DNA of 64,000 bases from Bacilli bacterium (GTDB taxonomy: Bacteria; Bacillota_I; Bacilli_A; RF39; UBA660): NCBI GenBank assembly GCA_016302935.1, contig JAEDMO010000001.1, forward strand, positions 141-64,140, given 5' to 3'. The position numbers were made by a program, and so were the translations under genes. Below the pieces are notes generated by a model, which saw nothing but the letters and a program-made list of their open reading frames with translations, ran no database searches and was not told the DNA's origin. Position 1 is the first letter of the stretch; each line of letters begins with the position of its first letter. Positions 1,349 to 18,200 of the stretch are shown here, one piece after another.

Positions 1349-2362
1349 CTATTTTAATATCCATGCATTAGGTAGGTTACGTCCTCCTTCGCCTTCTTGT
1401 GTTGAAGGGGTGCTTATGTATTTACCTTCTGCATACATGACTGAAGAGTTACCTCCATCTAGATTACATGCGTTGTATGCACCATATCTTAATAGGAGGT
1501 TTGCCATTTGTTTTGCACTCATTCCAAGTATTCCTTTTCCATATTGTCTTCCGTCTGATACTAGTAATAGTACTATGCCATCTTGTCTTTGAGCTATCGC
1601 AGTTCTTTGAGCTTTACCTAGGCCTCCATCACCTTTGAATTGAGCCATTTTGCCATTGATAATTAAGAATGGGCCAAATTCTACGGCATCTACTAAGTTA
1701 TATTTGTTAATAGCGTCTTCTGGTTCATCTGTTGTTAATATCAATATGTGGTCTTTGTTGAATCCTACTATACCTCCGTTGCCTCCTCCGATTGCTTCAT
1801 TGTCATAAATTATTTTGCCATCCATAATTACGGCGCCGGTTGGAATTTTTGTTCTGTTTCTACCAAATAAGTAGCCACTGGCATTCATCGCGATTTTAGC
1901 ATCATAATATTCTGCTATTTCATCTATTTTTTGTTTACCTTTATTAGTTGATGCTACTAGTTCTACTCTTGATGGGTCATATATTACTGCTAAAAAAGCT
2001 TTATAACCATCTTCTTCTATTGTTATTATTTTGTATAAATCGTTGTCCTTATCTTTTTTTAATATTTGTTCTTCATAAATGGATGAATATGTGGTTTGTT
2101 CTTTTATCTCTCCTATTTTTATAGCAGAGGTATCTATTTTGTTAGTTAACCCTATTACTTCGTTATTTTTAAGAACATCATTTATCATTGAATCTGTATA
2201 AAATGTTCTTGCAATATATTTGTGGCTCATCGTTGACATTGCATTAGTTACAAGGAAATCTTTGATAAAAGTAAATGGACCATAGAAAAGGAATAAGCAT
2301 ATTATTGCAAGTGAATCTAATATTATGAATGTTATTACCCATTTTTTTGTTTTCTTTTTCAT
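1349..2362 (-). CDS. Phosphodiester glycosidase family protein (NAGPA-like), N-terminal membrane anchor
   Basis: 337 aa. N-terminal TM helix. C-terminal region reads AQRTAIAQRQDGIVLLLVSDGRQ ... NLDGGNSS, typical of the phosphodiester glycosidase (DUF2233/NAGPA) domain. Confidence 0.55.
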   Translation of the reverse strand: MKKKTKKWVITFIILDSLAIICLFLFYGPFTFIKDFLVTNAMSTMSHKYIARTFYTDSMINDVLKNNEVIGLTNKIDTSAIKIGEIKEQTTYSSIYEEQILKKDKDNDLYKIITIEEDGYKAFLAVIYDPSRVELVASTNKGKQKIDEIAEYYDAKIAMNASGYLFGRNRTKIPTGAVIMDGKIIYDNEAIGGGNGGIVGFNKDHILILTTDEPEDAINKYNLVDAVEFGPFLIINGKMAQFKGDGGLGKAQRTAIAQRQDGIVLLLVSDGRQYGKGILGMSAKQMANLLLRYGAYNACNLDGGNSSVMYAEGKYISTPSTQEGEGGRNLPNAWILK

Positions 2363-2369
2363 TTTATCA

Positions 2370-3773
2370 CTACCTTCCTATTATGTAAGGACTATCTATA
2401 GTTCCTTCGCCGGATAATGCTATTAAACTGCCATCTAAGTATATTACGGGACGTAGCTTTGATTTTTGATCTATTTTAGAAGTATATAAATTATATTCGC
2501 TATTTATTGTGTATAAGATATTATCCATATGGTCAGTAATGGCTAGCATAGTTAATACATCACTGTATGTATTTAGGTATAAATCTCCAACTTGTGGAAG
2601 TCCTACATATGTATCTATACTATCTTTATATACTAATCTATAGTCATATTCGTCAGTTTCATATTTTCCAGTATAAAATGGACCTTTTACTAAATATTCT
2701 TTGTTTTCTAATGTTTCATAATAATCATTATTTAAGAAGTATCCTATATTATAGTTTTTGGTTGGATTGTAGGTATTGTTTTTAGTTGAAAATATTTTTT
2801 CTATTGCTTTTTCTTCTTCTAGTATGTTACCTTCCAAGGCTACTTTAACTGAAGAAGCTGTTTTTGAAATAATACGCCAAGTTCTGCCACTATACTCAAG
2901 GTATTCACCTACACCAACATTTATTAGTTTATAGTCATCGTATTCATCTATATAGTATGGTTTTTGTATAGTACCATCACCACTATTTAAAATTAGGTCT
3001 CCTTTTATGGTAATTACTGGTCTTATTCCATAGTGATGTTTGTTATATTCAGAGGTAGTATTTATCCCACCTTTATCAAATACATAATATAATTCATTAT
3101 TTTGGTTAAAATCCATTAGCCAGAAATATGTGTTGTTGTTTAAAAAACCTTCATTGGCACCTGAATTTAGATAATCTTTTAAGTTTAATAAAGTTATTTG
3201 ATAATCTGATTTTGTAGCCTCACAGGTTACATTTTCTGTACTGGTAACTGTATCTTCACAATATTGTGTGTTTACTAAAATATCAGTATTATTTAGAGTT
3301 TTATAAAATAGTGAATATTCATCTATGTTATTTAAATAGTTATATAAATATGAATTTTGATATTCAATATCTTCACCATAAGGCATAAGTGTTTGTATTT
3401 CTTCACTAATTAGTACTATATTTTTATCTTTAGTTGTTTTTATAATACGCCATAATCTTCCAGAATAATATACAAAATTATTTTCTACCTGTCCCTTAAA
3501 ATAATATGTATTATCTTCATTTTTTATAAGACCATTTTCTTTTTGAATGAGAATGTCATCTTCTGGTAGGTATGTTAGTAGATGGTTATAAATTGAAATT
3601 GGCTCTGATATTTCGGTATCATCTACTATATTTGCTTCTAATCTATAATAATGTATAAATCTATAACCATATATAATAAAAAGAGAAGCAAGGGATACGA
3701 TGCTTATGGCTATAAATATTTTGTCTTTTCTAATTACTCTTCTCATAATTCTCCTTTTAAGCTCCAAAATCAT
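2370..3773 (-). CDS. Membrane-anchored protein of unknown function with internally duplicated extracellular domain
   Basis: 467 aa. N-terminal TM. Two ~210-aa repeats that each begin Y..GR.WRII and end RPVI..G.L...SG(D/E)GTI..PY.I. Overlaps the DUF4956 gene by 17 nt, so probably co-transcribed with it. Confidence 0.5.
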   Translation of the reverse strand: MILELKRRIMRRVIRKDKIFIAISIVSLASLFIIYGYRFIHYYRLEANIVDDTEISEPISIYNHLLTYLPEDDILIQKENGLIKNEDNTYYFKGQVENNFVYYSGRLWRIIKTTKDKNIVLISEEIQTLMPYGEDIEYQNSYLYNYLNNIDEYSLFYKTLNNTDILVNTQYCEDTVTSTENVTCEATKSDYQITLLNLKDYLNSGANEGFLNNNTYFWLMDFNQNNELYYVFDKGGINTTSEYNKHHYGIRPVITIKGDLILNSGDGTIQKPYYIDEYDDYKLINVGVGEYLEYSGRTWRIISKTASSVKVALEGNILEEEKAIEKIFSTKNNTYNPTKNYNIGYFLNNDYYETLENKEYLVKGPFYTGKYETDEYDYRLVYKDSIDTYVGLPQVGDLYLNTYSDVLTMLAITDHMDNILYTINSEYNLYTSKIDQKSKLRPVIYLDGSLIALSGEGTIDSPYIIGR

Positions 3774-4428
3774 TTTGATAACTTATAACACTTGCACTTA
3801 TTATGCCTTCTACATTTTTAAATTTGTCTAATATTTCGGTATGGTTATCTTTTAATTCTACTTCAAAGGTTGTTTCTATAATATCTTTGGTAACAGATTT
3901 ACTTTTTAGTTTGTGTTTTGGCAATTTATTAATGTATTTCATTACTTGTTCATCCATATTTAATTCATATTTTACAACAAATAAATACTTGCTATTTTTC
4001 TTAAATCCTAGGGAATAACTAACAAAGTATAGTAAGCCTAATGCTACTGATGATATTATGGCGATTAGGTAAAGACCTGCTCCAGACATAATACCAATTG
4101 TAATAGCCCAAAACATAAAGGCTGTATCTACTGGTTCTTTAACGGCTGTTCTAAAACGAACGATGGATAATGCTCCGACCATCCCTAATGATAAAGCTAA
4201 GTTGGAATTAATTGTTCTGATAATCAACGATGTAACCATACCAAGTAGCATTAAACATAATGCAAATGATTTGGAATAAACTACTCCGTTATATGTTTTT
4301 TTATAAACATATATGATAAATAAACCGATGATAAAGGCCGTTATTAATGATAAGGCCATATCCGTTATACTTACTGTGCCCGTAAATTCATTTAAGACAC
4401 TTTTTTTTATTAAATCTACAAATCCCAT
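3757..4428 (-). CDS. DUF4956 domain membrane protein
   Basis: 223 aa, multi-TM. Sequence character and adjacency to VTC-domain and CotH genes match the conserved DUF4956-VTC-CotH triad. Confidence 0.6.
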   Translation of the reverse strand: MGFVDLIKKSVLNEFTGTVSITDMALSLITAFIIGLFIIYVYKKTYNGVVYSKSFALCLMLLGMVTSLIIRTINSNLALSLGMVGALSIVRFRTAVKEPVDTAFMFWAITIGIMSGAGLYLIAIISSVALGLLYFVSYSLGFKKNSKYLFVVKYELNMDEQVMKYINKLPKHKLKSKSVTKDIIETTFEVELKDNHTEILDKFKNVEGIISASVISYQNDFGA

Positions 4429-4440
4429 TTCTATACTCCT

Positions 4441-5121
4441 TTATTTTAAATTTCTGCAGGTAGCAAATTTTGAATATGCTTCCCTATTTAATGATACTGT
4501 TGATAATATAATAGCTATCATCTCAGGTAATATTTCATTATATTTTACTTCTAAAACTAGATAATCGTCATCTATGACACTAGCATAATTAACACTTTTG
4601 TCAAAAAGATCATAATTATACACTCCAGATTTTATTTCGCTATCAAAAGTTATTCTAACTTCTGAAACTGGATATGTATAGGCTAATCTTTTATAATCAA
4701 CTATTACTGAAGGGGCTAGTTTTTTAGTCTTCATATCGATTATAAATTTTTTTAAGATATCGTTTTTGGATATATCTATATCATCAATATTACCATTTAT
4801 TATTTTACTACAAATCTCTTTGGTTATCAATACTGATTCTTTACTAGTCATGTTATTATGTTTGTATTTGCATTCTAATCTGATGAAATTGTCATCTTGA
4901 TTATAGATTCTAATTCTATATTTTTTTCGATATTCTACTCCATCTAATTTTTCGTAGTAAGCGGTATTTTGTGGATCGTCAAAGTAGAGCGATCTTATTT
5001 GATATGTATTATCTTCATTATATGAATTTTTATCTATATCCATGATAGTTTTTAATTTTTGTTTTAATATTTCACCAGTGTTTTTGCTGATCATATATTT
5101 TATCTCGTGTCTATATTTCAT
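4441..5121 (-). CDS. VTC domain (polyphosphate polymerase domain-like) protein
   Basis: 226 aa. MKYRHEIKY ... YRKKYRIRIYN ... LECKYKH resembles the VTC/CYTH-like domain. Overlaps the CotH gene stop/start by 4 nt. Confidence 0.65.
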   Translation of the reverse strand: MKYRHEIKYMISKNTGEILKQKLKTIMDIDKNSYNEDNTYQIRSLYFDDPQNTAYYEKLDGVEYRKKYRIRIYNQDDNFIRLECKYKHNNMTSKESVLITKEICSKIINGNIDDIDISKNDILKKFIIDMKTKKLAPSVIVDYKRLAYTYPVSEVRITFDSEIKSGVYNYDLFDKSVNYASVIDDDYLVLEVKYNEILPEMIAIILSTVSLNREAYSKFATCRNLK

Positions 5122-7994
5122 AATAAATCACCAAAATACTTTTTCATTTCAGATTCACTTAATCCAAAGAAAGATTTTGTTTGATTTAACATTATTGGTG
5201 TTCTTTTTTTGATATAGTTCCTTAATCTGTTTACATTGTCTTCCCAATTTTCCATAGTTATATTCCATCTTTCACAATTTCTAGGCATTTCTTTTTTATA
5301 TATTTGATATAATTCTTCTAATTTTTTGCTTAGTTTTTCATAAGTCCATATGTTGTTTAGGTTGTAGGATAATCTTTCTACATATCTTTTTTTGAATTCA
5401 TTATTTTTCATTAAATTTCTTAATACTGTGGTAGGTATTTGAAGTCTACTCATTGGGGTTGCACTAGTTGAAAATATATAGTAATTTTTAGTTACATTAA
5501 ACATCGCCCAATCTAAGTCGTAGAAGATAGCTCGCATTTTTCCATCATTAATATCCGGATGAGAATAAAATCTAGCATTTACTATATCGTTATTGGTGGT
5601 GTATGTTTCGGCAATCCAAAAATCTATTATGCTATCTATATCTATTTTTGTTTTTATGTATTCGTAATTTTTTTGATCTGCCATATTATGGTTACTTAGA
5701 TAGTTAACTATTTCTTTATACCAAGTGGTGCTTCCACATGTGACATTATTATCTATCCTTGTGATGTTTACTTTATCTTCAGATACATTATAGTGGTTTG
5801 CTATAAATTCTGATTCTATTTTTTCTCTAATATTATATATTCCCCAGTATGTTCCATTAATATATAGTATGATTGTTTTATACGCTTGAACTTCTACTGT
5901 TTCTAGTTCTTCTAATGTTGAGGTCATAAAAATATCAGCGAAAGCTGCATATTCATAATCTGTTGATGCACTTCTTAAAACCAAGGTATCAAATGAAGAA
6001 AAGTCTCTGTTATTAAAAACTTGGTAATTTAATTTACTAGCACCATATTCGCTTCTAAACTTTAATTGAAAGCTTTTTTTGGGTAATCCTCTAGTAGTGC
6101 CTCCGAATAGTTTTATTCCACATGGAATGCTGAATGAACTATTTTCTTCAAATAGTTCCGCGTATGCTGTTCTTTCTACTTCCCCACTATAGGTATTACT
6201 TTGAATTCTATTAAAATCTGATTGTTTTAATGATAAAGATAAAACTGGCAGAGTATGATTTTCATTTATTATGTATGATGAGGTAACTACCTCGCTCGGT
6301 AATTTATTATCTTCATAGCTTACTACTTTTAAAACACTAGTCTTGTTTAAAAAAATGGGACTGTTATATTTTTTAGATGATCTATTTGGAATGCTTCCAT
6401 CTAACGTATAATATATTGTCCCATTACCTTTTATTTCTATGCTAATATTTTGTACATCATTATATATTCCAGGAGCTACATTAATAATTGGTGTGTATGC
6501 TATTTGGTTTGTCCCGTTTTTGTTTTGGCTTTTTGGGGTGGGATTGCTGAAATAATATATTCCCGATTTTGTTCCTCTTCCCATACTGTAGCCAAGAGGA
6601 ACATTAGCAATGAAAATAGAATCTATTATTTTGTTATCTTTGGTTAAGTAAAGGCTTTCTATTTCAGATAATTTAAAATTTGTATGTTTGTACGTATTAT
6701 TGGATAAGTTGGTATCCCCAGAAGCCATTACTACATAGTACCCTCCAGGTTTTAGTGAAACATCTGGAAGATTATACATCGTTTTTAGATTATCGTTTGT
6801 GGTTAGATAGTAATCTTTTAGATTGATTGTTTTTTGTGTGTTATTTTTTAATTCTATCCAGTCGTAGTAATTACCTCCATTTTGAGGTAGGTACTCATTA
6901 TTTTGGTTCATAACTTCACTAATAATTAAATCGTTAGGATTGGTTAGATTTTTTTCATTAAAATTTTTTATACCACTGTTATTATTAGGGTAGCCGGGAG
7001 TTATATTATTGCTTATGTAATACTCTTCATTTTCATATATTAAGGCCATACCATTGGCTACTTGGTCATATTCTACTATATCTACTATTTTGTTGCCATT
7101 ACTTAATACTACTTCTCCAGTTTTTTCGGTTAATTTAAATCCAGTATAATTGTTTGAAACGCTACTTGTTGCAGTATAAAAAACATATACTTCTCCACTT
7201 TTTAGTGATATATCTGGTAATTTATAAGTAAATGGATGCTTAGTTGAATTTGATAGACTGTAAGTTTTTAGGTTAACTGTATTTTTGGATATATTAATTA
7301 TTTCGATATATCCTTCTAATTTACCGTTTTCATTTATGAAATTTCCTTTATTTCTTGGTAATATTTCATTTATTTTTATTTTATTTTCTTCGCTTTTTAG
7401 GCTATTTATATAATTTTCATAGCCTTGTTTTGTGTTAGGAAAACCTGGGGTTGGTAAATCTGATGTATATAGATTGCCGTTTAGATCCCTAGCGATTGTT
7501 TCGTTTTTATCAAGAGGCGTTACGGTAATGGCATCTATTACTTTACCATTAGCTTTGGTTAATACAAGCGTTTCTCCACCTTTTGAACTTAATCTAAAGT
7601 TAGCGTATAATCCTTCTTTTTTTTCACCGCATAGATTTATTATCAAATATTCTTTGGCTTTTATAATTGTTTCTGGAAATACCCATTTTATTTTACTTTT
7701 ATCGTCAGATAATCCATAATTTTTTAAGTTAATGTCATAATTATTCCCATTATAAAGTTCAACCCAATCATATTGGTTGCCATCTACATCGGCATATGTT
7801 CCTTTATTAGAAGACATGATTTCATTAATTATTAATTTGTTAATCTTTGATTCGCCATCGGGTTCATTTTCTTTAATCGTCAATTTTTTATTTGTATCAG
7901 TATCAATTGCTATTCCCACTATTATACCTAACACCACAACAGATAGGCATATTATGATAAAATGTAGGTTGTTTTTTAAAAATTTTGTATTCAT
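5118..7994 (-). CDS. CotH kinase family protein with three lamin-tail domains and a chitobiase/hexosaminidase-C-like domain
   Basis: 958 aa. N-terminal TM. Three repeats of the INE(I/V)M...YDW(V/I)EL(Y/K)N type (lamin-tail domain). A GIYNDVQNISIEIKGNGTIYYTLDGSIP segment (CHB_HEX_C-like). C-terminal half reads as a CotH domain. Confidence 0.75.
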   Translation of the reverse strand: MNTKFLKNNLHFIIICLSVVVLGIIVGIAIDTDTNKKLTIKENEPDGESKINKLIINEIMSSNKGTYADVDGNQYDWVELYNGNNYDINLKNYGLSDDKSKIKWVFPETIIKAKEYLIINLCGEKKEGLYANFRLSSKGGETLVLTKANGKVIDAITVTPLDKNETIARDLNGNLYTSDLPTPGFPNTKQGYENYINSLKSEENKIKINEILPRNKGNFINENGKLEGYIEIINISKNTVNLKTYSLSNSTKHPFTYKLPDISLKSGEVYVFYTATSSVSNNYTGFKLTEKTGEVVLSNGNKIVDIVEYDQVANGMALIYENEEYYISNNITPGYPNNNSGIKNFNEKNLTNPNDLIISEVMNQNNEYLPQNGGNYYDWIELKNNTQKTINLKDYYLTTNDNLKTMYNLPDVSLKPGGYYVVMASGDTNLSNNTYKHTNFKLSEIESLYLTKDNKIIDSIFIANVPLGYSMGRGTKSGIYYFSNPTPKSQNKNGTNQIAYTPIINVAPGIYNDVQNISIEIKGNGTIYYTLDGSIPNRSSKKYNSPIFLNKTSVLKVVSYEDNKLPSEVVTSSYIINENHTLPVLSLSLKQSDFNRIQSNTYSGEVERTAYAELFEENSSFSIPCGIKLFGGTTRGLPKKSFQLKFRSEYGASKLNYQVFNNRDFSSFDTLVLRSASTDYEYAAFADIFMTSTLEELETVEVQAYKTIILYINGTYWGIYNIREKIESEFIANHYNVSEDKVNITRIDNNVTCGSTTWYKEIVNYLSNHNMADQKNYEYIKTKIDIDSIIDFWIAETYTTNNDIVNARFYSHPDINDGKMRAIFYDLDWAMFNVTKNYYIFSTSATPMSRLQIPTTVLRNLMKNNEFKKRYVERLSYNLNNIWTYEKLSKKLEELYQIYKKEMPRNCERWNITMENWEDNVNRLRNYIKKRTPIMLNQTKSFFGLSESEMKKYFGDLL

Positions 7995-8067
7995 ATAATT
8001 CCTCCTTACATTCTATTCTTACTTTATAATATTATCACAATGTGACATTTTTTTCAAGGTGAATAGA

Positions 8068-8090
8068 AAAAAAGTCCTAAATTTTAGGAT
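8068..8090 (-). terminator. Intrinsic terminator after the 74-aa gene
   Basis: tcctaaa/tttagga hairpin overlapping the stop codon, followed on the - strand by a T-run (an A-run on the + strand). Confidence 0.45.
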
Positions 8091-8308
8091 TTATAGATGA
8101 CTTTCTTTTTATTTTCTTCTTGTAGTCTAGCAAGATAATCTTTTTTTACTGTTATTGCAGAATGTATTAGTTTGTGGTCTTTATCATATTCTAAAATACT
8201 ACTTCTTACTGACTCTTCTTCTGTTTCAACTTCGTTATCATTTTCATCATAGTAAAATATGCAAGTGTATTCCCCGCCATTGGGAGTAGGTCCTTTAATT
8301 TCTTTCAT
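8084..8308 (-). CDS. Small acidic hypothetical protein (candidate immunity/partner of the upstream large protein)
   Basis: 74 aa. Starts 38 bp downstream of the 842-aa gene and is followed by a terminator. No recognisable family. Confidence 0.4.
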   Translation of the reverse strand: MKEIKGPTPNGGEYTCIFYYDENDNEVETEEESVRSSILEYDKDHKLIHSAITVKKDYLARLQEENKKKVIYKS

Positions 8309-8346
8309 GTTATCTTTTATTCCTTTCTTTTATTCAATTTTGCTAA

Positions 8347-10875
8347 TTATTTTTTTGAAAAATTAGGTTGGACTACTTCACTTAAAAATATATCATGAAT
8401 AATTTTTGCTCTGTTTGGATATTTTTGGTTAAATTTTTCAAATCCATTACGTTCTATATAAGCTAGAGAATCAGCGTAATCTTCAATTAATAATCCACGT
8501 TTTTGAAAATGATCTTGCCCGTAACTATAGTTGCTTCCTTCTTTATGTGGTATCCAAGAATTGTCTGCATTTACAGCCTCCGGCCAATATTGACTACTTG
8601 ATATCCAATGTTGAGGGTCTGCGAGGTGACCCATTTCGTGTAACACTGATCCGTAATGAAATTTGTTATTAACTACCTCATTTGCATTATATAATACGAT
8701 GGTTTTCTCCTTTTGATAAGATGCTGCATATACATTGATTCTTTGCTCAAGCTTGCCAGTAATAACGACATTAATCAATCCTGTTTTATTGTATATTGCT
8801 GGGTATTTATTTTTTAAATATTCAAACACCGCCATTTGTTCTTTTAAAAATGTGTAATCAGCATCAACCATTGATTCGTCAATATAATACATAACACCAT
8901 GCCCATACTTATCAATATCAGAACTTTCATAATATGTGTAGTATTTATTTGTACTGGATGGATTTTCTATTTTAAACGTTGTTTCGTTTATAGTTACTTC
9001 ATTTATATTTGCTGCATTAAATCTTGATTCTACCATTAAATAAGTTAATGCTTTGTTGATATCTTCTGGCTCAACAGTTATGATAGTTTTATTGCCATAG
9101 TAATCACTATATTCAAATTCTACTGTTTTTTTGTTGTTAATGCAATTCTGAAAGAATTCAAGATATGATGGATTTTGACTAATTAATCTTTTTATTCTTT
9201 CTACATTAAACGACATACTATCTGAAGTTTTTGTTTCTTCTATATTATCATAGGTGCCGTACGGAAATGCAATAGTCTTGGCCTCACAATATTCTTCAAT
9301 AACTTTGTTAACTTCCATTTTGATAATTTTATCTTTTACTTTAATATATACTTCTTGGGCTCCTGTTAAAACTGCTGACCATAAGAAACCAATTATAAAG
9401 GCTTTCCCTGCTTCGTCATTTAATTTATCCATATCTATAGGTTCCCCTAATATGAACGCTGATGCACCGGCATTCATATATGTCTGCAAGGATTCTCCAA
9501 CTCCTGCTTTTAACATTTTACTTAATGTATGTGCACTATCGCTATTTAAATATGGAATATTTCCCAATAATCTTGTCACAGCATAATATGAAGCACCAAT
9601 AGCCAGTCCATAAACACTCGACTCTACTAGTCCATGTCCATTGATTAATGCTTGGTTTTTAGCGTTTCCTGCAGCACTTGCACCGCCTAATACTTGTGCA
9701 ACCGTAGCTCCTGCTGCTGGGGTTGCTACAGCACTCACCAATATAGATGCCGCAATTGTCGGCGTCATTCCTCCTATGGTGTTGCCTACATTATATCCCC
9801 CTTTTACCCAATTAGTATCTTTTATTGCTTCTAGTATATACATTTGAGCATATTGGTTTTGAGATATTATACCTTCTGTAGCAAACACATTAACTATTCC
9901 ATCAGCAAAATTATCTATGCCATCAATTACCCCCTTACCCGTACCTGTTAGTGTGGAAAGAGCATTTTCATTTATTTTTCCATCTGAATCTGTTATTAAT
10001 GAAAGAAAATTGTCTGCTTCTATTTTCCCAGCATTTCTGTTTAATCTATCTTGTATGTCTCTTATATAATTATCTGCTGCAAATGGGTTTTTGGTTTCAC
10101 ATAAATAGCAATACATATTTTTTTCTGATTCAGTCAGCGTTCCGCTTGGATATTTTCTTTCTAAATCAAAGGTATAGTGACTATCAAAATATGCAATTTT
10201 TTTATCATTTTCTCTTTTCTTTACCCATTCTTGAAATTCTTTGGTTTCCATAATTTCTAAATATGGTAGTTCCTTTTTTTGTTGAATTGCTAAATATCTT
10301 TGCATTTTTAATTCATTGCTTGATATATATAATTCATCCTTTTTTTTCAAATATTCTTCATATGTCATTCCTACAATCTCTTCATATTGAGCTTCAAAAT
10401 TTTTTTTATAACCTGCTTCTACTGCTTTGATTGTCTCATTTACCTCTGCTTCCCATTTAGTTTCATCAAATTCATAGTTTTCATCAAAACACTTATTTGG
10501 ATCTAATCGGGCAATTCTTTCGTATAAATATTCTTCTGGTGTCATATAGTAAGGATTTAAAGGTTCCGTTCTTACAAGGCCGTATTCTTCTCCATGTTTT
10601 AAAAAATTTTGATGTTTTTCTATTAAATCTTTATATTCATTATCAATTTGAGATATCGTTTTATCTAGCGTTTCTATATATTCATCTGCAAATAACATTT
10701 CATTTGCAACTGTATTTGAATTATTATTATAACTTTCATAATCTACTTCTATATTGTATTCATCTGGAATTGCTATGTCTTTAATTTTTGTTACATTTTG
10801 ACTGTTTATATTACTAGATGAGTCTTTTTTTAGATTAAATTTAGATGTATCTACATTAAAATTAAATTGAGACAT
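8347..10875 (-). CDS. Large protein with Gly/Ala-rich (glycine-zipper-like) hydrophobic core and C-terminal HExxH metallopeptidase-like motif; candidate secreted effector/toxin
   Basis: 842 aa. No signal peptide. Central ~150-aa Gly/Ala-rich stretch (GGMTPTIAASILVSAVATPAAGATVAQVLGGASAAG ... GLAIGASYYA ... IIGFLWSAVLTGA). C-terminal VLHEMGHLADPQHW motif. Own promoter-like element upstream. Confidence 0.5.
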   Translation of the reverse strand: MSQFNFNVDTSKFNLKKDSSSNINSQNVTKIKDIAIPDEYNIEVDYESYNNNSNTVANEMLFADEYIETLDKTISQIDNEYKDLIEKHQNFLKHGEEYGLVRTEPLNPYYMTPEEYLYERIARLDPNKCFDENYEFDETKWEAEVNETIKAVEAGYKKNFEAQYEEIVGMTYEEYLKKKDELYISSNELKMQRYLAIQQKKELPYLEIMETKEFQEWVKKRENDKKIAYFDSHYTFDLERKYPSGTLTESEKNMYCYLCETKNPFAADNYIRDIQDRLNRNAGKIEADNFLSLITDSDGKINENALSTLTGTGKGVIDGIDNFADGIVNVFATEGIISQNQYAQMYILEAIKDTNWVKGGYNVGNTIGGMTPTIAASILVSAVATPAAGATVAQVLGGASAAGNAKNQALINGHGLVESSVYGLAIGASYYAVTRLLGNIPYLNSDSAHTLSKMLKAGVGESLQTYMNAGASAFILGEPIDMDKLNDEAGKAFIIGFLWSAVLTGAQEVYIKVKDKIIKMEVNKVIEEYCEAKTIAFPYGTYDNIEETKTSDSMSFNVERIKRLISQNPSYLEFFQNCINNKKTVEFEYSDYYGNKTIITVEPEDINKALTYLMVESRFNAANINEVTINETTFKIENPSSTNKYYTYYESSDIDKYGHGVMYYIDESMVDADYTFLKEQMAVFEYLKNKYPAIYNKTGLINVVITGKLEQRINVYAASYQKEKTIVLYNANEVVNNKFHYGSVLHEMGHLADPQHWISSSQYWPEAVNADNSWIPHKEGSNYSYGQDHFQKRGLLIEDYADSLAYIERNGFEKFNQKYPNRAKIIHDIFLSEVVQPNFSKK

Positions 10876-10947
10876 GTTAATTTACACCTTCTTTCTTAAT
10901 TTGTTGTTAATCTTGAAAATTGTTAGTATTTTAAGGCTTTCCGACTT

Positions 10948-10976
10948 ATTTTATAAGTTCATTCTAAAACTTGCAA
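10948..10976 (-). promoter_or_regulatory. Sigma-A-like promoter for the 842-aa gene
   Basis: On the - strand: TTGCAA, 17-nt spacer, TAAAAT. Lies about 70 nt upstream of the ATG at 10875. Confidence 0.4.
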
Positions 10977-11586
10977 TTTAATATTGAAGTCTGCTGAAAA
11001 ATTCTTTTCTATATTTATTATGGTATTATAGATTTTTTTGCTGTAGAAATAATGTTGACTATAATCAATAGCACTCTTTTGTTCAATAATTATCGTAATT
11101 TGATGATAGTTCTGTATTTAATGTATAATCTAATTTTTTTTAATATTATATTCATCCACTACTATTAATTTTTCATTAACATTTTGTTTTTCTTTGTTTA
11201 ACTAATACCTCATTATTAATAGAAATGATACCAAGCATATATTATAACGCTTCTTCGAAAAGGCGATATTATTATATTCATTAAACCTTGTTTTAAATAA
11301 CTATTCCTATTTTCAAATTGCTGTCTTAACTGGGTATAAAAAATTGCAAATTATTAGATTTTCTAATCAGCTAAAAGAAAAGGATATTGATTCTATAATA
11401 GTTCGCGGTTTAACTAATAGACCTTCTAATAATTCACTTTCCACCAAAGAATTTGAATTTATTAAGAACTTTAAGAATAAATATCCAGTTATTAGTATAT
11501 CACAATTTCAAGATATTTATCATGAAGATGTTATTTGAAATCCAAAAATGAAAAATAATTTTTTAATTGTGCTTTTATTTTATATA

Positions 11587-13455
11587 TTATCTTTTAACTA
11601 GTGTTTTAACAATAGCATGGTTTATAGTACCACTGATAGTTTTTGTAGGTTCACCATACTTTTTGTCATACTTGACTATCCACTGTAGTAAGTCATCAAA
11701 TTTTTTATATTCTTCTTTTTGTTTTTGTCTTGTACTAGATGAATAGCCTCTAGTGGAACTTGAGCCTATTTCTAAGGTAACTATTTTTATATTTTTATTT
11801 ACTGGATTATAATATTCTTTATGTTTATCAATATCATTATATATTAATAATGGGTCTCCATTATAAGTTAAACGGCCATAAAAGTCACTGAAGATAAATC
11901 CTGATGCTACTTCTGTTGCATAATCTGATAGGCTTCCTTCTCCGCCTCCTCTTAATTCTTTTTCTTCGTTTATTTTGCTATATCCTATGTGTTTTCTAAT
12001 GGCATCTCTAAAATGAGCGGATTTACTGGTTTTGTTTTTCTCATCATATAATTTACCACCATATACTCCTTTTCCTGATTGGTGATAATCTATTAGGTAT
12101 GAAGCAGTAGGAATATATTTATTTAAAACTGCCATTACGGCTTGGGTTTCAGATTCACTTCCTAAATATGGCCCACAGTAGTGTGAATATGAAGGTTTTT
12201 CTTCATATCTTGAGTGGCTGTTGCCAAATTTATATTGCATCGCATTAGAGGTAGGAAAATTTCTTCCTATATCAACATAGTTGGCGTTGGCTTTTAGACT
12301 ATATTTTCCGTTTATTACCATTTCACGTCCATCTGGATTAACACAAGGAATTGCTACAAATTTATAATCGGTTAATATTTTTTTAGCATTTTCTTCTGTT
12401 TCTGCTTTTCTTACTAGGTCGCTTAATCCTTTTAATATATATGATGGTCCGGCGGTTTCTCTAGCGTGAACTCCTCCTGTTAAAATTATTGTTTTACTGC
12501 CAGTACCTACTTCTAGTAGATATATTTTTCTTCCTTGTTCACTATAGCCTGCGATATATGTTTTGACCATACTATGTCTGGTTAGATTTTCAACAAAGTT
12601 ATCAATATCTTTGTATGAATAATACTTGCTTATATCATAGTCAATATCTTCGTAAGTTCCACTTGATACTACTTCTTTAAATGTTTTATTTTTTGTACTT
12701 TGATATTCATTTGTAGGCATTCCCTTGGCTAAAAATTCACCTTCAGTCGTTTGTTCATTCATTTTTTCAATCGATTCAGCAGCGTAGGTTATATTTGATT
12801 CGTTGTTTAGAATTTGACTTATGGCATTTTTATACATTGAACTAACATTTTCTACTGTAATTGGTATGACATTCCAATTATATTTTAATTCATTATCTTC
12901 TATTTCAATAAATGGTAAGTTATTAATTTTGACTTTCGTAGCAGTTGTTTCACTCGATATCCCATTGTTTATTGCTTTTGTTTTGTTTTGAATATCAGTT
13001 AACCCTTCTATTTGCTGAGCTATATTAGCTCCTATTTGAATAATTATTGAATCCATGCTACAACCAGTTCCTGTAGCATTACTTTGAGCTTTTGATAATA
13101 TATCCAATGTTTCTTTTATTTTATTTATAGATTTTTGGCAATCATCACTGTTATATATTAAATACTTATTTTTATATGGTATATCATTTTGCTCTAAAAT
13201 TGTATCTAATTTGATAAAATAATTATTATTAATTTCTGTACAACTAAGTATAGTATCTTCTAAAGCGTTTACTTTTTTACGATCATTAGTAATATATTCT
13301 ATGAATGTTTTTATATTATCATCATTCCAATAACTTTCTACTTTTTCAGCGTTTATATATATCTGTTCTTGACCTTCTATGTATGAATTAATCTTACTTT
13401 TTAGGTTTTTATTTTCTTCTATTGAAGATTGTATATTTATACGAAAAGATATCAT
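11587..13455 (-). CDS. Candidate T7SS effector: N-terminal helical (LXG-like) region fused to an M14 zinc carboxypeptidase (gamma-D-Glu-DAP peptidase-like) domain
   Basis: 622 aa. No signal peptide. Residues ~300-600 carry the complete M14 site: GGVHARETAG (HxxE), CVNPDG, IDYHQSG (second His) and TLEIG (catalytic Glu). The start overlaps the upstream 100-aa gene by 4 nt (ATGA). Confidence 0.65.
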   Translation of the reverse strand: MISFRINIQSSIEENKNLKSKINSYIEGQEQIYINAEKVESYWNDDNIKTFIEYITNDRKKVNALEDTILSCTEINNNYFIKLDTILEQNDIPYKNKYLIYNSDDCQKSINKIKETLDILSKAQSNATGTGCSMDSIIIQIGANIAQQIEGLTDIQNKTKAINNGISSETTATKVKINNLPFIEIEDNELKYNWNVIPITVENVSSMYKNAISQILNNESNITYAAESIEKMNEQTTEGEFLAKGMPTNEYQSTKNKTFKEVVSSGTYEDIDYDISKYYSYKDIDNFVENLTRHSMVKTYIAGYSEQGRKIYLLEVGTGSKTIILTGGVHARETAGPSYILKGLSDLVRKAETEENAKKILTDYKFVAIPCVNPDGREMVINGKYSLKANANYVDIGRNFPTSNAMQYKFGNSHSRYEEKPSYSHYCGPYLGSESETQAVMAVLNKYIPTASYLIDYHQSGKGVYGGKLYDEKNKTSKSAHFRDAIRKHIGYSKINEEKELRGGGEGSLSDYATEVASGFIFSDFYGRLTYNGDPLLIYNDIDKHKEYYNPVNKNIKIVTLEIGSSSTRGYSSSTRQKQKEEYKKFDDLLQWIVKYDKKYGEPTKTISGTINHAIVKTLVKR

Positions 13456-13754
13456 AATATGCCTCCTGTACTGATAGAGTTATTGCTTTTTTCTAGTTCA
13501 GATAATTCGGTTAATCTAGCTATTTCTTGCTCTATTTGGGGCATAGCATTGCTAATGGCATTAATATCTGCTTCTATATTTTGTTTGATATTAGTTAGTT
13601 CTTTGTTCTTATATAACTCTCCGTTAATATTTAAGCCTATTTCATTTAATTTTTTTATGCTTTCAATATTACTTGCACATACTTGTAAACAACTCTGAAC
13701 TATTTGTAATTTGTCTATTAATTGTTTTAATTTGTTTATTTCTTCTTCCATCAA
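13452..13754 (-). CDS. Small helical protein, candidate effector-targeting/adaptor (Lap/DUF3958-like) factor
   Basis: 100 aa, predicted all-helical. Translationally coupled to the M14-domain gene. This position is typical of small partner proteins of LXG toxins. Confidence 0.45.
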   Translation of the reverse strand: MMEEEINKLKQLIDKLQIVQSCLQVCASNIESIKKLNEIGLNINGELYKNKELTNIKQNIEADINAISNAMPQIEQEIARLTELSELEKSNNSISTGGIL

Positions 13755-13802
13755 AAATCCTCCTGTTTTTAAACAAACGCTAATATTTTATTAGCATTTA
13801 TT

Positions 13803-13834
13803 TAAAAACAACAATATGTTATTGTTGTTTTTTT
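13803..13834 (-). terminator. Intrinsic terminator downstream of the 236-aa WXG-like gene
   Basis: aacaacaata/tattgttgtt hairpin flanked by A- and T-runs, immediately after the stop at 13836. Confidence 0.5.
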
Positions 13835-13835
13835 C

Positions 13836-14546
13836 TTAATGGTTACTTACACCGCTTCCTATATTTGTAGCAGCTTGTCCCATTTCACCTGATGCTGTAG
13901 TATCCGCTTCACTATAACCAGTATCTGTGTGTTGATCTACATATTCCATTAAGTCATCGATATCCGTATTTAACCTTTTTATTGTTTCTCCTACAGCTTC
14001 AATAAATTGATCAATACTTGCTGTTTGATTTCCAAAGAAAGCTTGGCAAGATTCATATTCACTGTATATGTTTTTAATGCCTGTTTCAATTTCAGTTTTA
14101 TATTCTGTTAAAGCTGTTTCTATTAATGCTCCACCGCCGGTTACAATCCCCAATTTTTCTCCAGCAAATTTATTTTCATTTAATTTAACAACACTCTTCA
14201 TATCAATCAAATTAATGGCGGGAGCAGTAAAATCATAATTTACGGTTGCTACTGAGGTATCGATTCTATTATTATTTTGAAATTCTTGCCATGCATTTGC
14301 TAAATTCACAATCGTTTGAATCATGTTAGTAACTAATCCTGTGGTCTTGTCATATAATGTGTTTATACGATCTGCGATTGTTTTTTCATATGCTTGTTCG
14401 TCGACCCCTTTCCAATTATTTTGCATTACTTTTGGAATGTTAGGCCACCCATGTGAAATTGTTTCTCCTACTTTTTCATAGCTGTTAGCTATATCTTGCA
14501 TTAGTTCTTGAATTTTCTCTGGTTGATAACCGATAAATCCATTCAT
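13836..14546 (-). CDS. WXG100-like domain protein with C-terminal extension (candidate T7SS substrate or LXG-associated adaptor)
   Basis: 236 aa. MQNNWKGVDEQAYEK carries a W-x-G motif at about residue 45 inside a helical N-terminal ~100 aa. Lies 15 bp downstream of the esxA-like gene. Confidence 0.5.
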   Translation of the reverse strand: MNGFIGYQPEKIQELMQDIANSYEKVGETISHGWPNIPKVMQNNWKGVDEQAYEKTIADRINTLYDKTTGLVTNMIQTIVNLANAWQEFQNNNRIDTSVATVNYDFTAPAINLIDMKSVVKLNENKFAGEKLGIVTGGGALIETALTEYKTEIETGIKNIYSEYESCQAFFGNQTASIDQFIEAVGETIKRLNTDIDDLMEYVDQHTDTGYSEADTTASGEMGQAATNIGSGVSNH

Positions 14547-14561
14547 TTTTTTCCTCCTTTT

Positions 14562-14873
14562 CTAAAATTGGTTTGAGTTTGCAGAATCTAAATTGGCTTT
14601 TACTGTATCATCTTGTTCTTTATAACTCTTCACAACTTCTTCAATAGTAATATAGTAGTTAATATTATTATTATCAATCATCTTGGTATATTTGAATTCA
14701 TTAGAAATTTTATTTGTTATGAATGACAAATCATTACCCTCATAACAACTCTCTAATACTTTGATTTGCTTATTTAATTCCATTTCTAAATCTTCTACTA
14801 ATATCTGTTGTCCTTCTATTTTTGTTTGGATTTCTTCCATACCTTCGTAATTTATTCCTCGAATACTTATCAC
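14562..14873 (-). CDS. WXG100 family (EsxA-like) protein, YxG variant
   Basis: 103 aa. A central ESCYEGNDLSF (Y-E-G) stands in for the W-x-G turn. Length and helical character are right, and it directly follows yukD/essC. It has its own consensus promoter. Confidence 0.55.
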   Translation of the reverse strand: MISIRGINYEGMEEIQTKIEGQQILVEDLEMELNKQIKVLESCYEGNDLSFITNKISNEFKYTKMIDNNNINYYITIEEVVKSYKEQDDTVKANLDSANSNQF

Positions 14874-14903
14874 CCTTTCTGCATACTCATTACCTTTATT
14901 GTA

Positions 14904-14932
14904 ATTTTATTACATTCATATTAATAAGTCAA
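14904..14932 (-). promoter_or_regulatory. Consensus sigma-A promoter for the esxA-like gene
   Basis: On the - strand: TTGACT, 17 nt, TAAAAT, about 30 nt upstream of the ATG at 14873. Confidence 0.5.
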
Positions 14933-14957
14933 GAAAATTGTGTATAATTTACATCAA

Positions 14958-15212
14958 TTAAATGAGAATTATCCTACTTCCATTAACTATTTCGGTATCT
15001 CTAATGATAACATCTGATTGATAGGTTTTCCCACTTGAAGTATCGATGATAATGTGGGTATTAATTGGATCAAATGATATATCTTGTAATTCGCTTATAG
15101 ATTTTGATAATAGAATAGTTAATTGACCTATTCTAATGTTAATAGGAATATATATATTATATTCTTCTTGTATTGTTGGCACATATACCTTTACTAATAT
15201 TTTATTCTTCAT
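14958..15212 (-). CDS. esaB: YukD/EsaB ubiquitin-like T7SS protein
   Basis: 84 aa. Sequence pattern resembles the YukD ubiquitin-fold family. Overlaps the essC stop by 11 nt. Confidence 0.65.
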   Translation of the reverse strand: MKNKILVKVYVPTIQEEYNIYIPINIRIGQLTILLSKSISELQDISFDPINTHIIIDTSSGKTYQSDVIIRDTEIVNGSRIILI

Positions 15213-18200
15213 CAGTATTTTCCTCCTCTTCGGTCACTAATTTTATTAATGTACCACTAGCATTTTTAATTATCCATGCATAATTGCTATCTATTTGTTC
15301 TTTATACTTCTTACTTACATCATTGATTTTAATATTAATTTGGTCAATAATACCATTACCTATCCATATTCCATTAGCATTATTAATTATTTCGTTATAC
15401 CAACTTTCAAAAGCAACTTTCTTTATTTTAAAACTTGAATCTATGTATATTATAGTTACATTTTTAATTAGCTTGATTTTGTTGATAAATTTGTTAAAGT
15501 CGTTTGTATTAATATTTAATTTAAACTTTTCTAGGCCGATTATCATTATTACTACTTCATATTGAGTGTTAACTATTTTTTGTTCGATAAAATTATCTAT
15601 ATTTTTTATGGTTTCATCAAAGTTTGTGGTGTAATAATTGTTGAAGTTGTTTTTAATACTATTTAAGGCTTCTTCAGCATCTAATGCTATGCTGATGGTA
15701 TTACCCGTTTTTTTAAACATATTAGTAATGTTTTTTGCTATACCGAGGCAATCTTCTATTTGATTAGATGCTATTAATGTTCCTTTATCTTTCTTGAAAT
15801 TATATGTATATATATTTAATTCTTCTTTATCAATGCCTAATGGTATGTTTTTGATAGTTATATTGTCACTGGTTACCATATTAGGAGTTATCTTTTCTGG
15901 CAATACTGGTATTTTAATGGCTTTATATGTGTTTGCTTCTGATAATTTTTTAGATAATGTAGTTATGAATTCTACTAATTTATTTTCTTCAGTTATTTTA
16001 GCTGTTTGGAACTCATATGCTAGATCTTTTTTAAATATACCTCGTCCAACAAAATCGCTAGGATAAACATTACCTATTTTGCCTAAAATGTTGATATAAT
16101 CATTTTTATCATTCATATCTAGTGCATAAACATTACCAAAATTTCTTGTTAAGCGGCTAAACATACCAGTAGTACTATTAGCGGTGATGACCATTAAAAT
16201 GCCATATCTTTTACCATCTCTGGATATTTTGGTTATTAATTCCTCATATTGACTATACGATTCTTTTAAAGCATCATAATTATTAATTACTACGACGTAT
16301 ATTGGCAATTTATTACCACTGTTTTGACAATATGTTTCATAATCTCCATTATAATCTACAAATAATTTTTTTCTTGATTGAATTTCATCTTCTATCATTG
16401 ATAACATTTTATTTATTTTTTCATTTTCGTTTGAAAAGCAAATGTCTCCTACATGAGGTAGTTTAGAGAATATTCTTAACGATTCCGAACCAAAGTCAAA
16501 TATATAGAAATTGATTTCTTCCGTTTTATATGAAGTACATGTTGAATATATTAATGCTTTTATAAACATTTCTCTGCCAACACCGGATAACCCATATACT
16601 AAAGTATTACCTTCAGTATCTAAATTTATCGCTACTAAATCTTGTCTTTGATTTGATGGGTCATCATATTCTCCTATAATAGCAGTTATTTTGTTTGTAG
16701 GTGTGAATTTATATTTTTTTATTAATTCATCAATATAGATATCTTTTGGGATATTATCTAGCCATAATCTTCTAGCAAATGTATTTTCTCTTGTAGCAAT
16801 GTTAGTTATATATTTGAGTATATTGGATAGTTCATCTCCTTGCGAGATTACCCTTTGTTTGCTGTTGTCCGCAATGTCTACTTGTTTGATGATATCTCCT
16901 GTATTATCAACAAACATTATTGAACGATCTATCTCTTGAGTAACCACATCCTTGGGTATGTATGGGCTTCCGCTGTAACCTGATTGACCCAAAACAAGCA
17001 TTTCGTTGTAACCAACCTGAAGATAGAAGCGACCAACGTTAGTTAATTCGGCTGCATTAGGACATTTTATCATTTCATTGCTGTCTGCTTTGTCTTGAAC
17101 TTTTAAACATACCCTAAATTTACTGTTACTCCAAATTTGATCATTAACTACACCACTTGGCTTTTGGGTTGCCAAAATCAAGTGCACTCCTAATGATCTA
17201 CCGATGCGGGCAGTACTAATTAAATTGTCCATAAATTCTGGCTGTTGCGATTTTAATTCTGCGAATTCATCACATATTATAAACAAATGAGGGATAGGAC
17301 TTTTTATTTTGTTTTCACGGTATAATTTTTGATATTTATATATATCCATGGTACTTTCACCTAATTCATCCCTTGCTTCATTAAAACTTTGTTGTCTTCT
17401 TTTTAATTCGCTATCGATACTAACTAGTGTACGATTTAATTCCGTTTTATCTAGATTAGTTATTGTTCCTGATAAATGAGGTAATTTTATATTATTTTTT
17501 TTGTTTTCAAAAGCCCCCGCTAAACCTCCTCCTTTATAATCAATTAAAATAAAAGATACTTCATTAGGACTATAATTGACTGCCATTGATAAGATATATG
17601 TGATAATAAACTCTGATTTGCCACTGCCAGTAGTACCAGCAATTAATCCATGTGGTCCATGCATTTTTTCATGCAAATCTAAATAAATAATATCATTAGT
17701 ATCATTCACGCCAATAGGTGCCCTTAAATACTTGGTAGGATTGTTAATCCGCCATCTGTTCATAGCATTTAGTTGCTCTATTTTACCTATTTTATACATA
17801 TCTAAAAAACTTAGAAAACTAGGTAAATTTCTTTTATCTAACTCAAACGCTATAGGGATGTTAGCCAGTATTTGAGCGCATTCTTGCATATCAAAATTGT
17901 TTCTTATTTCGTCTTGAAATGATTGCTGATAACTATTATTAATACTTGTTGATAAAACAGTTGATGAAGAACTTCCAATATTTATAAACGTTTCGCATTC
18001 GCTTGGCATTTTTCCAAGTCTACTTTCTTTAACAATAAAACTAAATCCATAATTGTTTTTTTCGGCTAATATTTTTTCTGTAATTCCTAATTTACGAATA
18101 TTCAGATAATCATCTGTTAAGATTAAATAATATGGTAAATAAGTATTAGATTCTTCGCCATCTTCGTTTTCTACATTGTCAGAAGAAGATTGGTTTTGTT

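Follow-up and report, generated by a model that had tools for sequence, protein, structure and literature searches.

A candidate type VII secretion toxin with a lethal-factor-like zincin domain and a small partner protein beside essC in a Bacilli bacterium

Does a gene pair next to essC, the ATPase gene of a T7SS (type VII secretion system), encode an exported toxin and its immunity protein, and of which kind would the toxin be? The question is raised by a 64,000-nucleotide (nt) stretch from a Bacilli bacterium (GTDB lineage RF39; UBA660), positions 141 to 64,140 of contig JAEDMO010000001.1 (assembly GCA_016302935.1). The whole stretch is referred to as the window and has a GC content of 27.7%. 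The pair consists of open reading frames (ORFs) for a protein of 842 amino acids (aa) (8347..10875, including the stop codon) and for a 74-aa protein (8084..8308). Coordinates are those of the window, and features are on the minus strand, unless another locus or strand is named. Both ORFs are as described in an initial annotation made from the sequence alone, which proposed a membrane-acting or metallopeptidase toxin and its immunity protein, serviced by the adjacent T7SS.

Competition between Gram-positive gut bacteria is shaped by polymorphic toxins that are delivered through T7SSs. To our knowledge, the characterized T7SS substrates are almost all LXG/WXG proteins from cultured Bacillota, and we know of no established mechanism by which T7SS toxin domains enter their target cells. 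Based on sequence comparison and structure models, we propose that the 842-aa protein belongs, as a polymorphic toxin, to a minimal, EssC-centered T7SS, that its cargo is an M34-like zincin and that the 74-aa protein is its cognate immunity protein. We assign this proposal a probability of about 0.66.

A conserved N-terminal module linked to essC

The 842-aa protein has a two-part architecture. A search of 5.8 billion proteins returned 141 relatives, only one of which is full length (P0001, 96% identical). The remaining homologs (597 to 1461 aa) align to residues ~1-510/580 and then diverge, with alignments ending at ~507-582. One homolog ends in an ADPrib_exo_Tox domain (P0007, 2.6e-26), another has a C-terminal transglutaminase match below the cut-off (P0004, 22 bits vs 23), and most have unnamed C-termini. 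A conserved N-terminal region with diverse, exchangeable C-termini is the polymorphic-toxin architecture that had been supposed initially. Scans of Pfam, NCBIfam and PHROGs revealed no family for either protein, in line with the initial failure to recognize one, and a PDB sequence search with the whole 842-aa protein returned only noise.

The conserved part (residues ~1-525) is called the module below. Its first 54 residues (10714..10875) are Asn/Ser-rich and predicted to be disordered (predicted local distance difference test, pLDDT, 24-50). The N-termini of the homologs are likewise Ser/Asn-rich, with an "NFN" motif in some of them. The protein lacks an N-terminal hydrophobic segment, the first hydrophobic peak being at ~residue 372, and therefore has no signal peptide, as originally stated. 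Residues 55-300 (9976..10713) form long helices (55-93, 138-168, 172-209 and following; pLDDT mostly 80-90). They are followed by a Gly/Ala-rich helical core (residues 301-525; 9301..9975), which ends at the junction to the variable region. The AlphaFold2 model of residues 1-525, computed from a 17-sequence alignment, is all-helical (pLDDT 74.6, predicted template modeling score 0.69), with the disordered N-terminus preceding the long helices at 55-209. The module is strongly conserved at ~residues 160-512. Its invariant residues include Y194, Q198, K201, P204, Y205, D276, N279, Q341, Y342, Q344, S400, G403 and K406, and the motifs NQYAQMYIL and GxSAxGNAKNQAL are conserved in the Gly/Ala-rich core.

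Across ~300-510, Gly, Ala, Ser and Thr account for 17-26 of every 50 residues, compared with 6-12 elsewhere in the protein, and 12 of the 13 matches to [GAS]xxx[GAS]xxx[GAS] fall inside this region. The model places helices at 305-331, 339-350, 355-383, 386-411, 416-437, 451-476 and 482-505, followed by a beta-hairpin. Five helices of 22-29 residues make up the Gly/Ala-rich region, and the first three of these have only one or two charged residues each. The composition and the GxxxG-type repeats noted initially are thus real, while the membrane-inserting toxin domain that had been read from them is not borne out. The core lies within the region common to homologs with unrelated C-termini and is therefore a delivery scaffold, not the toxin; a glycine-zipper toxin was rejected on this ground. 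The glycine-zipper toxins TelE, EsxX, TspA and S. suis LXG-T2 are also T7SS-associated and have similar small-xxx-small helices. In these, however, the zipper is the variable C-terminal toxin, whereas here it belongs to the conserved scaffold upstream of a separate, enzymatic toxin, and the 74-aa partner is soluble. In a profile comparison (hhalign), core residues 360-501 resembled the hydrophobic region of other HExxH toxins that have different N-termini (probability 88%, E = 2.8e-6), and P0122 carries the full module (7.7e-34). The core may thus be a more widespread pre-toxin element.

The module gene family is linked to essC. In the window, essC (15202..19773) codes for the presumed exporter, an FHA-domain ATPase of T7SS (TIGR03928, 1001 bits vs cut-off 778; FtsK_SpoIIIE and FHA domains), so that an adjacent T7SS locus, as initially claimed, is confirmed for EssC. 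Thirteen independent loci are informative, having about 7 kb or more of upstream sequence. In eight of them, the distance from the end of an EssC homolog (40-64% identical) to the module gene downstream is 2.3-3.3 kb, with small ORFs in between. In the window, essC is followed by genes for proteins of 84, 103, 236 and 100 aa (13452..15212), which are syntenic in locus L017. The 84-aa ORF overlaps the essC stop codon; it is YukD/EsaB-like by position and size only and has no Pfam match at E <= 1. The 236-aa gene has a weak WXG100 match (8e-5, below the cut-off). The linkage expected of a T7SS substrate, to an EssC/EccC ATPase and to WXG100-type small genes, is thus found, with the WXG100 part being weak. 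L017 repeats the window order, with essC, the 103-, 236- and 100-aa genes, a relative of a 622-aa toxin candidate (see below) and a module toxin. The gene directly upstream of essC is a housekeeping gene (ssb in the window, tuf in L003).

One metagenome-assembled genome (MAG) has six or seven module genes, with only one cluster beside essC. Tandem module paralogs occur, each with a small ORF after it, and one copy is pseudogenized (L026). Such multiple, tandem and pseudogenized copies are effector behavior. In the one-genome-per-species contigs, the module was found only in MAGs labeled as uncultured "Bacilli" or "Mycoplasmatota", plus a few labeled "Muribaculaceae". The contigs of the latter (L018, L019, L032, L034) have 24-29% GC, like those from Bacilli and Mycoplasmatota, and are probably mis-binned. 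Two giant module-family ORFs of about 2,700-2,850 aa adjoin essC in other loci (L027, 8956..17524; L031, 8929..17077). Module profile matches are spread over ~2,000 of their residues, which suggests internal duplications or many inserted domains.

The C-terminal domain and its small partner

The C-terminal domain (residues ~600-842; 8350..9078) has the motifs of a zincin. A HEMGH motif near the C-terminus (residues 746-750; 8626..8640) had been noted initially. It occurs once in the protein, is invariant in 14 of 14 aligned copies and contains two predicted zinc ligands (H746, H750) and the predicted catalytic base (E747). An acidic motif (E798-D799-Y-A801-D802-S803; 8467..8484) is predicted to form the helix with the third zinc ligand. 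In alignments of 11 and 14 copies, H746, E747, H750, D771, Y783, E798, D799, A801, N821 and R822 are invariant, and residue 802 is always Asp or Glu. Judged from the sequence, HExxH with E-D-x-A-(D/E) is a gluzincin layout, and it agrees with the M34 motif, which combines HExxH with a downstream Glu/Asp in an E-x-x-A-(E/D) helix.

The domain is rare. When residues 521-842 were searched exhaustively against 1.84 billion representatives with HMMER, nine proteins matched (E 2e-9 to 9e-4). The matches cover only residues ~723-830 and are always at the extreme C-terminus of otherwise different multidomain proteins. The module homolog P0009 carries the same zincin domain. A word-indexed protein search with residues 521-842 came back empty and missed even the 96%-identical, full-length P0001, which is in that database; this looks like a limitation of the tool. 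A housekeeping metalloprotease was rejected, given that the domain is so rare and always terminal on conflict-type proteins. The initial annotation had named a clear match to such an enzyme, or to a phage tape-measure or tail family, as grounds to give up the toxin proposal. Both were looked for and none was found.

Several lines point to the peptidase family. The best PDB matches of the domain profile are all to Pro-Pro endopeptidase (Zmp1/PPEP-1). With E about 0.5, these matches fall short of significance, and the alignment to PPEP-1 is nevertheless in register at HExxH and at E-F-F-A-E-S. Sub-threshold Pfam matches in relatives of the domain are to ATLF (0.017, in two of 11), to Peptidase_M91 (0.0025) and, in single relatives, to Tox-MPTase2 (0.034) and Tox-MPTase5 (0.12). 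When the predicted structure of residues 521-842, a poor model, was compared with PDB structures by Foldseek, every one of the 26 best matches was to anthrax lethal factor or PPEP-3, at E 0.011-0.34, with a probability of up to 0.99 and a TM-score of about 0.22-0.32. Each line is weak, and together they are consistent and point to an M34/lethal-factor-like zincin. The domain shares with PPEP-1 and PPEP-3 the HExxH motif, a helix of the type E-x-F/Y-A-(E/D)-S ~50 residues later and, with toxins of the Tox-ALFMetallopeptidase type, its position as a terminal toxin domain. It differs in being below every Pfam threshold and in having its own insertion of ~60 residues, which has no confident model; in the model of residues 521-842, about 120 residues of an insertion are unmodeled. 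M91 (NleD) is among the possible relatives at sub-threshold level. The initial assignment as Tox-MPTase-like was not upheld, the closest relatives being lethal factor and PPEP (M34), and possibly NleD.

The 74-aa protein, initially described as acidic, has an isoelectric point of 5.14 and 16 Asp/Glu vs 12 Lys/Arg residues. Its core motif is PTPNGGEY-x4-YYDEN. A Pfam scan revealed no named family, and a profile of the small protein produced only noise when compared with the PDB, so that the structural check proposed initially gave fold matches for the C-terminal domain, on a poor model, and no relative for the partner. By sequence, the partner belongs to a new family of 55-100 aa. In the assembly collection, 525 blocks contain the exact 74-aa sequence, and its context is the same in every one of them; the organism is therefore common.

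Homologs of the partner were seen in independent contexts, where they adjoin or are fused to related HExxH domains. A stand-alone HExxH protein of 275 aa, P0128, is encoded among housekeeping genes and is about 31% identical in the domain. The 60-aa ORF after it begins with MEKKMGPTPNGGDYALTYYYDENGLEV, which is clearly homologous to MKEIKGPTPNGGEYTCIFYYDENDNEV. A third partner homolog comes after P0132, a Gly-rich HExxH protein of 289 aa whose gene neighbors code for HNH endonucleases. A version with a Sec signal (P0133/L015) has no partner as its neighbor. A DNA-pattern scan for the partner motif returned 31 metagenome loci and five viral-contig loci, and all collected loci were scanned with hidden Markov models. 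In the latter scans, 12 independent toxin loci encode the partner on the strand of the toxin, at most 90 nt downstream. Those with the partner at this distance from the domain include the species of the window, L006/7, L014, L017 and L029. In three more loci, the partner gene is convergent and abuts the 3' end of the toxin gene. In L021 (8806..11914) and L023 (0..2130), a partner domain is fused in-frame to the C-terminus of the module toxin (…TPARSTVVYLDERGNEVSKEEGVRVHITEFDENDKIINE…), while the same sequence family is a separate 72-aa ORF in L029. Eight toxin loci came from searches that made no use of the partner; in seven of these it is adjacent or fused, and only the Sec-signal version is without it. 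The small downstream gene thus co-varies with the toxin domain and not with the N-terminus, as expected for an immunity gene, and the view of the 74-aa ORF as a cognate partner is borne out.

The toxin/partner cassette is inherited together across unrelated scaffolds. Besides the T7SS-linked module, these are a Phage_Mu_F protein (L070, 6e-17), a Phage_GPD/VgrG-like hub (L049), Gly-rich proteins and stand-alone genes. Thus, while the module is linked to essC, the cassette itself is, by sequence, not T7SS-specific, which narrows the tie to the T7SS that had been assumed. With MuF polymorphic toxins and polyvalent proteins (Jamet et al. 2017; Iyer et al. 2017), our cassette shares the arrangement seen in L070, with HExxH domain and small protein at the C-terminus of a Phage_Mu_F protein. 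The 842-aa protein itself, in contrast, has neither a Phage_Mu_F domain (PF04233) nor a phage context. Metallopeptidases are carried by 20% of MuF toxins, and toxin-immunity modules are shared between families (Jamet et al. 2017, PMC5576092). An ALF-type metallopeptidase was listed among polymorphic-toxin cargoes by Zhang et al. 2012 (PMC3482391), for delivery by PVC and the type II secretion system and with Imm-SuFu as immunity protein. The cassettes described here differ from those in having T7SS-linked, MuF and GPD scaffolds and an unrelated partner of 55-100 aa.

Some loci have more than one partner copy. L049 (7474..8080) and L055 (2351..2996) code for a cytosolic copy of 57-58 aa and then for a second copy with an N-terminal transmembrane (TM) segment and a long Pro/Glu-rich linker. 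In L046 (2109..2667), the reported copy is TM-anchored. The anchored copies are predicted to face outward. The combination of cytosolic and TM-anchored copies recalls EsxX, which is neutralized by two distinct immunity-protein families in different compartments (PMC10434224, PMC12744356). Partner homologs without an HExxH gene (e.g., MEKRDNPTPSGGDYSIAYYYDDDGPCEK…) were seen in loci L035-L063 (e.g., L036 at ~7060, L039 at ~4410, L062 at ~6907). Some of these have an N-terminal extension of ~45 aa, and they are often near phage-like genes.

Weighing the proposed mechanism against alternatives

What the sequences show is the two-part architecture, the linkage of the module family to essC, the conserved zincin motifs and the joint inheritance of zincin and partner. 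For the function of the pair, we infer the following scheme. The 842-aa protein would be made in the cytoplasm, where binding of the 74-aa partner would hold the protease inactive. Residues ~1-525 would be recognized by the EssC machinery, possibly together with the small helical proteins encoded upstream, and the protein would be exported. In a competitor bacterium without the partner, the zincin would cleave one or more proteins, with H746, H750 and an acidic residue of the E798-D-Y-A-D802-S helix predicted to bind zinc and E747 to act as catalytic base. We speculate that the marginally hydrophobic Gly/Ala-rich bundle helps the cargo to engage or to cross the target membrane. That the partner is soluble, and is absent from the Sec-exported version, suggests that the protease is dangerous inside the cytoplasm of the producer. 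The outward-facing partner copies in other loci suggest that it can also act from outside. Extra membrane-anchored and orphan partner copies fit immunity-gene behavior.

A number of results speak against this proposal. Neither EssB nor EsaA nor EssA is recognizable beside essC in the window, in L003, in L017 and in others, and a working T7SS is thus not established. LXG, WXG100 and PT-TG signatures are absent from the 842-aa protein (E <= 0.01) and from 17 module members (E <= 1). The 842-aa protein itself has no match to any Pfam peptidase family, including PF07737 (ATLF) and Tox-MPTase, every match to M34 is individually non-significant, and the AlphaFold2 model of residues 521-842 is poor overall (mean pLDDT 57). 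On a crude scale of the Hessa type, the best segments of the Gly/Ala-rich helices have values of +3.8 to +6.5 kcal/mol, compared with +1.5 and +2.1 for the TM helices of EssC; such marginal hydrophobicity would be expected of a soluble, exportable bundle that might insert conditionally. The in-frame fusions in L021 and L023 are unusual for an inhibitor unless they are cleaved or result from an assembly error; they could be real, or an assembly or frameshift artifact. Finally, 25 of the 38 motif instances of the partner have no toxin beside them, many of these copies being located at the end of a contig or in phage-like surroundings. One reading is that they are orphan immunity genes, another that the family has a broader function.

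A close comparison is with LXG toxins (PF04740) of T7SSb (e.g., TelA-C, EsaD-type, YeeF/YxiD). Likenesses are the gene position downstream of essC after small WXG100-like genes, the multiple paralogs per genome, the helical conserved N-terminal region, the exchangeable C-terminal toxin and the small cognate gene directly downstream. Unlike these, the family described here lacks the signatures mentioned above, its conserved region is much longer (~525 aa) and contains the Gly/Ala-rich bundle, and the locus is devoid of the three recognizable Ess/Esa components. Structural matches to solved LXG complexes are also lacking, as Foldseek against the PDB gave a best E of 0.39 for the module, and a PDB search with the module profile produced only noise. 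The locus has no obvious fit to the published subtypes T7SSb-j (PMC11217815), from which it is set apart by description and not by a phylogenetic classification of EssC. The best description of the module is that of a new, so far unnamed trafficking module outside the LXG family, here with a rare lethal-factor-like zincin as cargo. The S8-PTS system (PMC9424270) was considered and is unrelated to the gene pair.

The predicted structure of the module resembles phage proteins. Among viral predicted structures (BFVD), Foldseek matched the module to a MuF C-terminal-domain protein (E = 4.8e-8, with 21% of 536 columns identical and a query TM-score of 0.40), to a phage "Nuclease" (5e-5) and to PolyVal ADP-ribosyltransferases (1e-3 to 8e-3). 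These entries, which include A0A8S5QAJ7, A0A8S5MUY6 and A0A8S5MP18, derive from metagenome-derived contigs, and the likeness is to the non-MuF parts of such proteins. It is tempting to speculate that the module is a self-contained delivery device which, by descent or exchange, is common to an unusually minimal T7SS of uncultured gut Bacilli/Mycoplasmatota, with ubiquitin-like and WXG-like small genes as the only company of EssC, and to polyvalent proteins ejected by phages, with the Gly/Ala bundle inserting into the target membrane and carrying the enzyme across. We regard this as unlikely. If true, it would link T7SS toxin entry to phage protein ejection and would define a new class of non-LXG T7SS substrates, perhaps even a new T7SS subtype.

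Zincins of phage and plasmid polyvalent proteins (PMC5512222) and of PVC toxins (PMC3482391) have been proposed to self-process. Likewise, the zincin described here might be an autoproteolytic processing or releasing peptidase with the small protein as its regulator, the effector being elsewhere, e.g., the hydrophobic module acting on membranes. The structural likeness of the module to polyvalent proteins fits this, as do the 120-180 further residues that follow the HExxH domain in L017, L021, L023 and L029. In two of these four loci, however, the fused partner domain accounts for some of the extra residues, and in the 842-aa protein the zincin comes last, with nothing downstream to be released. 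Were the module the toxin, one would expect the reverse of what is seen, a hydrophobic module that is conserved and C-termini that vary. That a dedicated small partner accompanies the zincin on four scaffolds is easier to reconcile with a dangerous cargo than with a maturation enzyme. We therefore consider a processing role, although a serious alternative, to be rather improbable.

Host kinases are the targets of lethal factor (M34) and NleD (M91). As these two enzymes are the nearest recognizable relatives, albeit through weak matches, and as the organism is gut-associated, the protein might be directed at the host, cleaving a eukaryotic signaling protein, with the 74-aa protein as secretion chaperone or pre-export inhibitor. 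The cassette is, however, also found on phage MuF and baseplate-hub proteins, which deliver into bacteria. The outward-facing, membrane-anchored partner copies, and the orphan copies in many genomes and phages, are as expected for defense against an incoming toxin, and the neighboring toxin candidate has a peptidoglycan-type M14 peptidase domain. A host-directed effector is thus very unlikely.

Even less probable is a polyvalent protein of a phage or mobile element, packaged or injected with DNA, which is merely encoded near essC and is no T7SS substrate. The matches to viral structures would be accounted for, and homologs with ADP-ribosyltransferase and transglutaminase domains are typical of polyvalent proteins. 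The window locus, however, has housekeeping genes on its flanks (ssb, ychF, abgT, mreB, spoIID) and none for phage or conjugation functions, and EssC linkage is found in the majority of the informative loci. Relatives of the module at the sequence level are found neither in IMG/VR, in INPHARED phages and in PLSDB plasmids nor among the MuF toxins compared. A tape-measure or tail protein was rejected, with no PHROG match, BFVD tape-measure entries at E >= 0.7 and probability <= 0.16, and no phage flanks. That module proteins are membrane components of a minimal T7SS in place of EssB/EsaA, with accessory C-terminal domains, would suit the missing EssB, EsaA and EssA, the constant large gene downstream of essC and the several weakly hydrophobic helices, but is hardly credible for proteins with up to six or seven copies per genome, mostly away from essC and some pseudogenized, with interchangeable toxin-type C-termini and partner genes, which is effector and not machinery behavior, and with a hydrophobicity below that of real TM helices.

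If the proposal of a T7SS-delivered zincin toxin with its immunity protein is confirmed, a large non-LXG trafficking module would be confined to abundant, uncultured low-GC gut lineages, and its weakly hydrophobic bundle would be a testable entry device. A rare lethal-factor-like protease toxin and a new partner family would form a cassette that moves between T7SS, phage MuF and baseplate-hub scaffolds, and the EssC locus would be one without recognizable EssB, EsaA and EssA. If it is not confirmed, an ordinary predicted toxin-immunity pair remains.

Flanking signals, neighboring genes and strain variation

The initial annotation had assigned a promoter to the 842-aa gene and a terminator to the end of the pair. 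The promoter-like hexamers exist (TTGCAA-17-TAAAAT; 10948..10976) and match the consensus at 9 of 12 positions. Such sites are no more common in this AT-rich stretch than in shuffled sequences (29 found vs 23.9 +/- 5.1 expected), so that the hexamers are no evidence by themselves and agree at the level of the consensus only. Given the 711-bp gap upstream of the gene (10876..11586), a separate promoter is nevertheless plausible. A terminator-like hairpin with a U-tract spans the stop codon of the 74-aa gene (about 8066..8089; 6-bp stem). It is weak (-7.9 kcal/mol over a 61-nt stretch, z = -1.9) and is not among the terminators listed in a scan of the window.

The 622-aa protein encoded between the small genes and the pair (11587..13455) has a helical N-terminus and a C-terminal Peptidase_M14 domain (PF00246, 2e-27) that is MpaA-like. 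Judged by its domains and position, a second T7SS toxin with peptidoglycan as its target is probable. Its relative in L017 shares only the N-terminal ~200 residues; the C-terminus is therefore also variable. The 711-bp gap after this gene contains no sizeable ORF on the same strand and thus no obvious immunity gene; it holds only a convergent 64-aa ORF (11344..11538, plus strand). Some strains (L009, L011, L013) have a 601-aa version of this protein and a 59-aa ORF in the gap. Downstream of the pair (1349..7994), a conserved operon with no evident toxin link codes for a CotH/lamin-tail-domain protein (958 aa), VTC, DUF4956, a 467-aa protein without a family match, and NAGPA.

Within the species, variation of the 842-aa gene is mosaic (8347..10875; L008-L013 and P0001). 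In some strains, ~17 substitutions are clustered in residues 82-166. L010 has 13 substitutions within the toxin domain, with an identical partner. By its pattern in the sequences, this variation suggests recombination between alleles. In L005 (61..543), also from the species of the window, a chimeric 160-aa ORF lies 60 nt from the contig end. It combines an unrelated N-terminus of 49 residues with the last ~110 residues of the toxin domain, and the intact gene for the 74-aa protein comes after it. Either the ORF is what is left of a toxin gene that was rearranged or displaced, or it reflects a break in the assembly.

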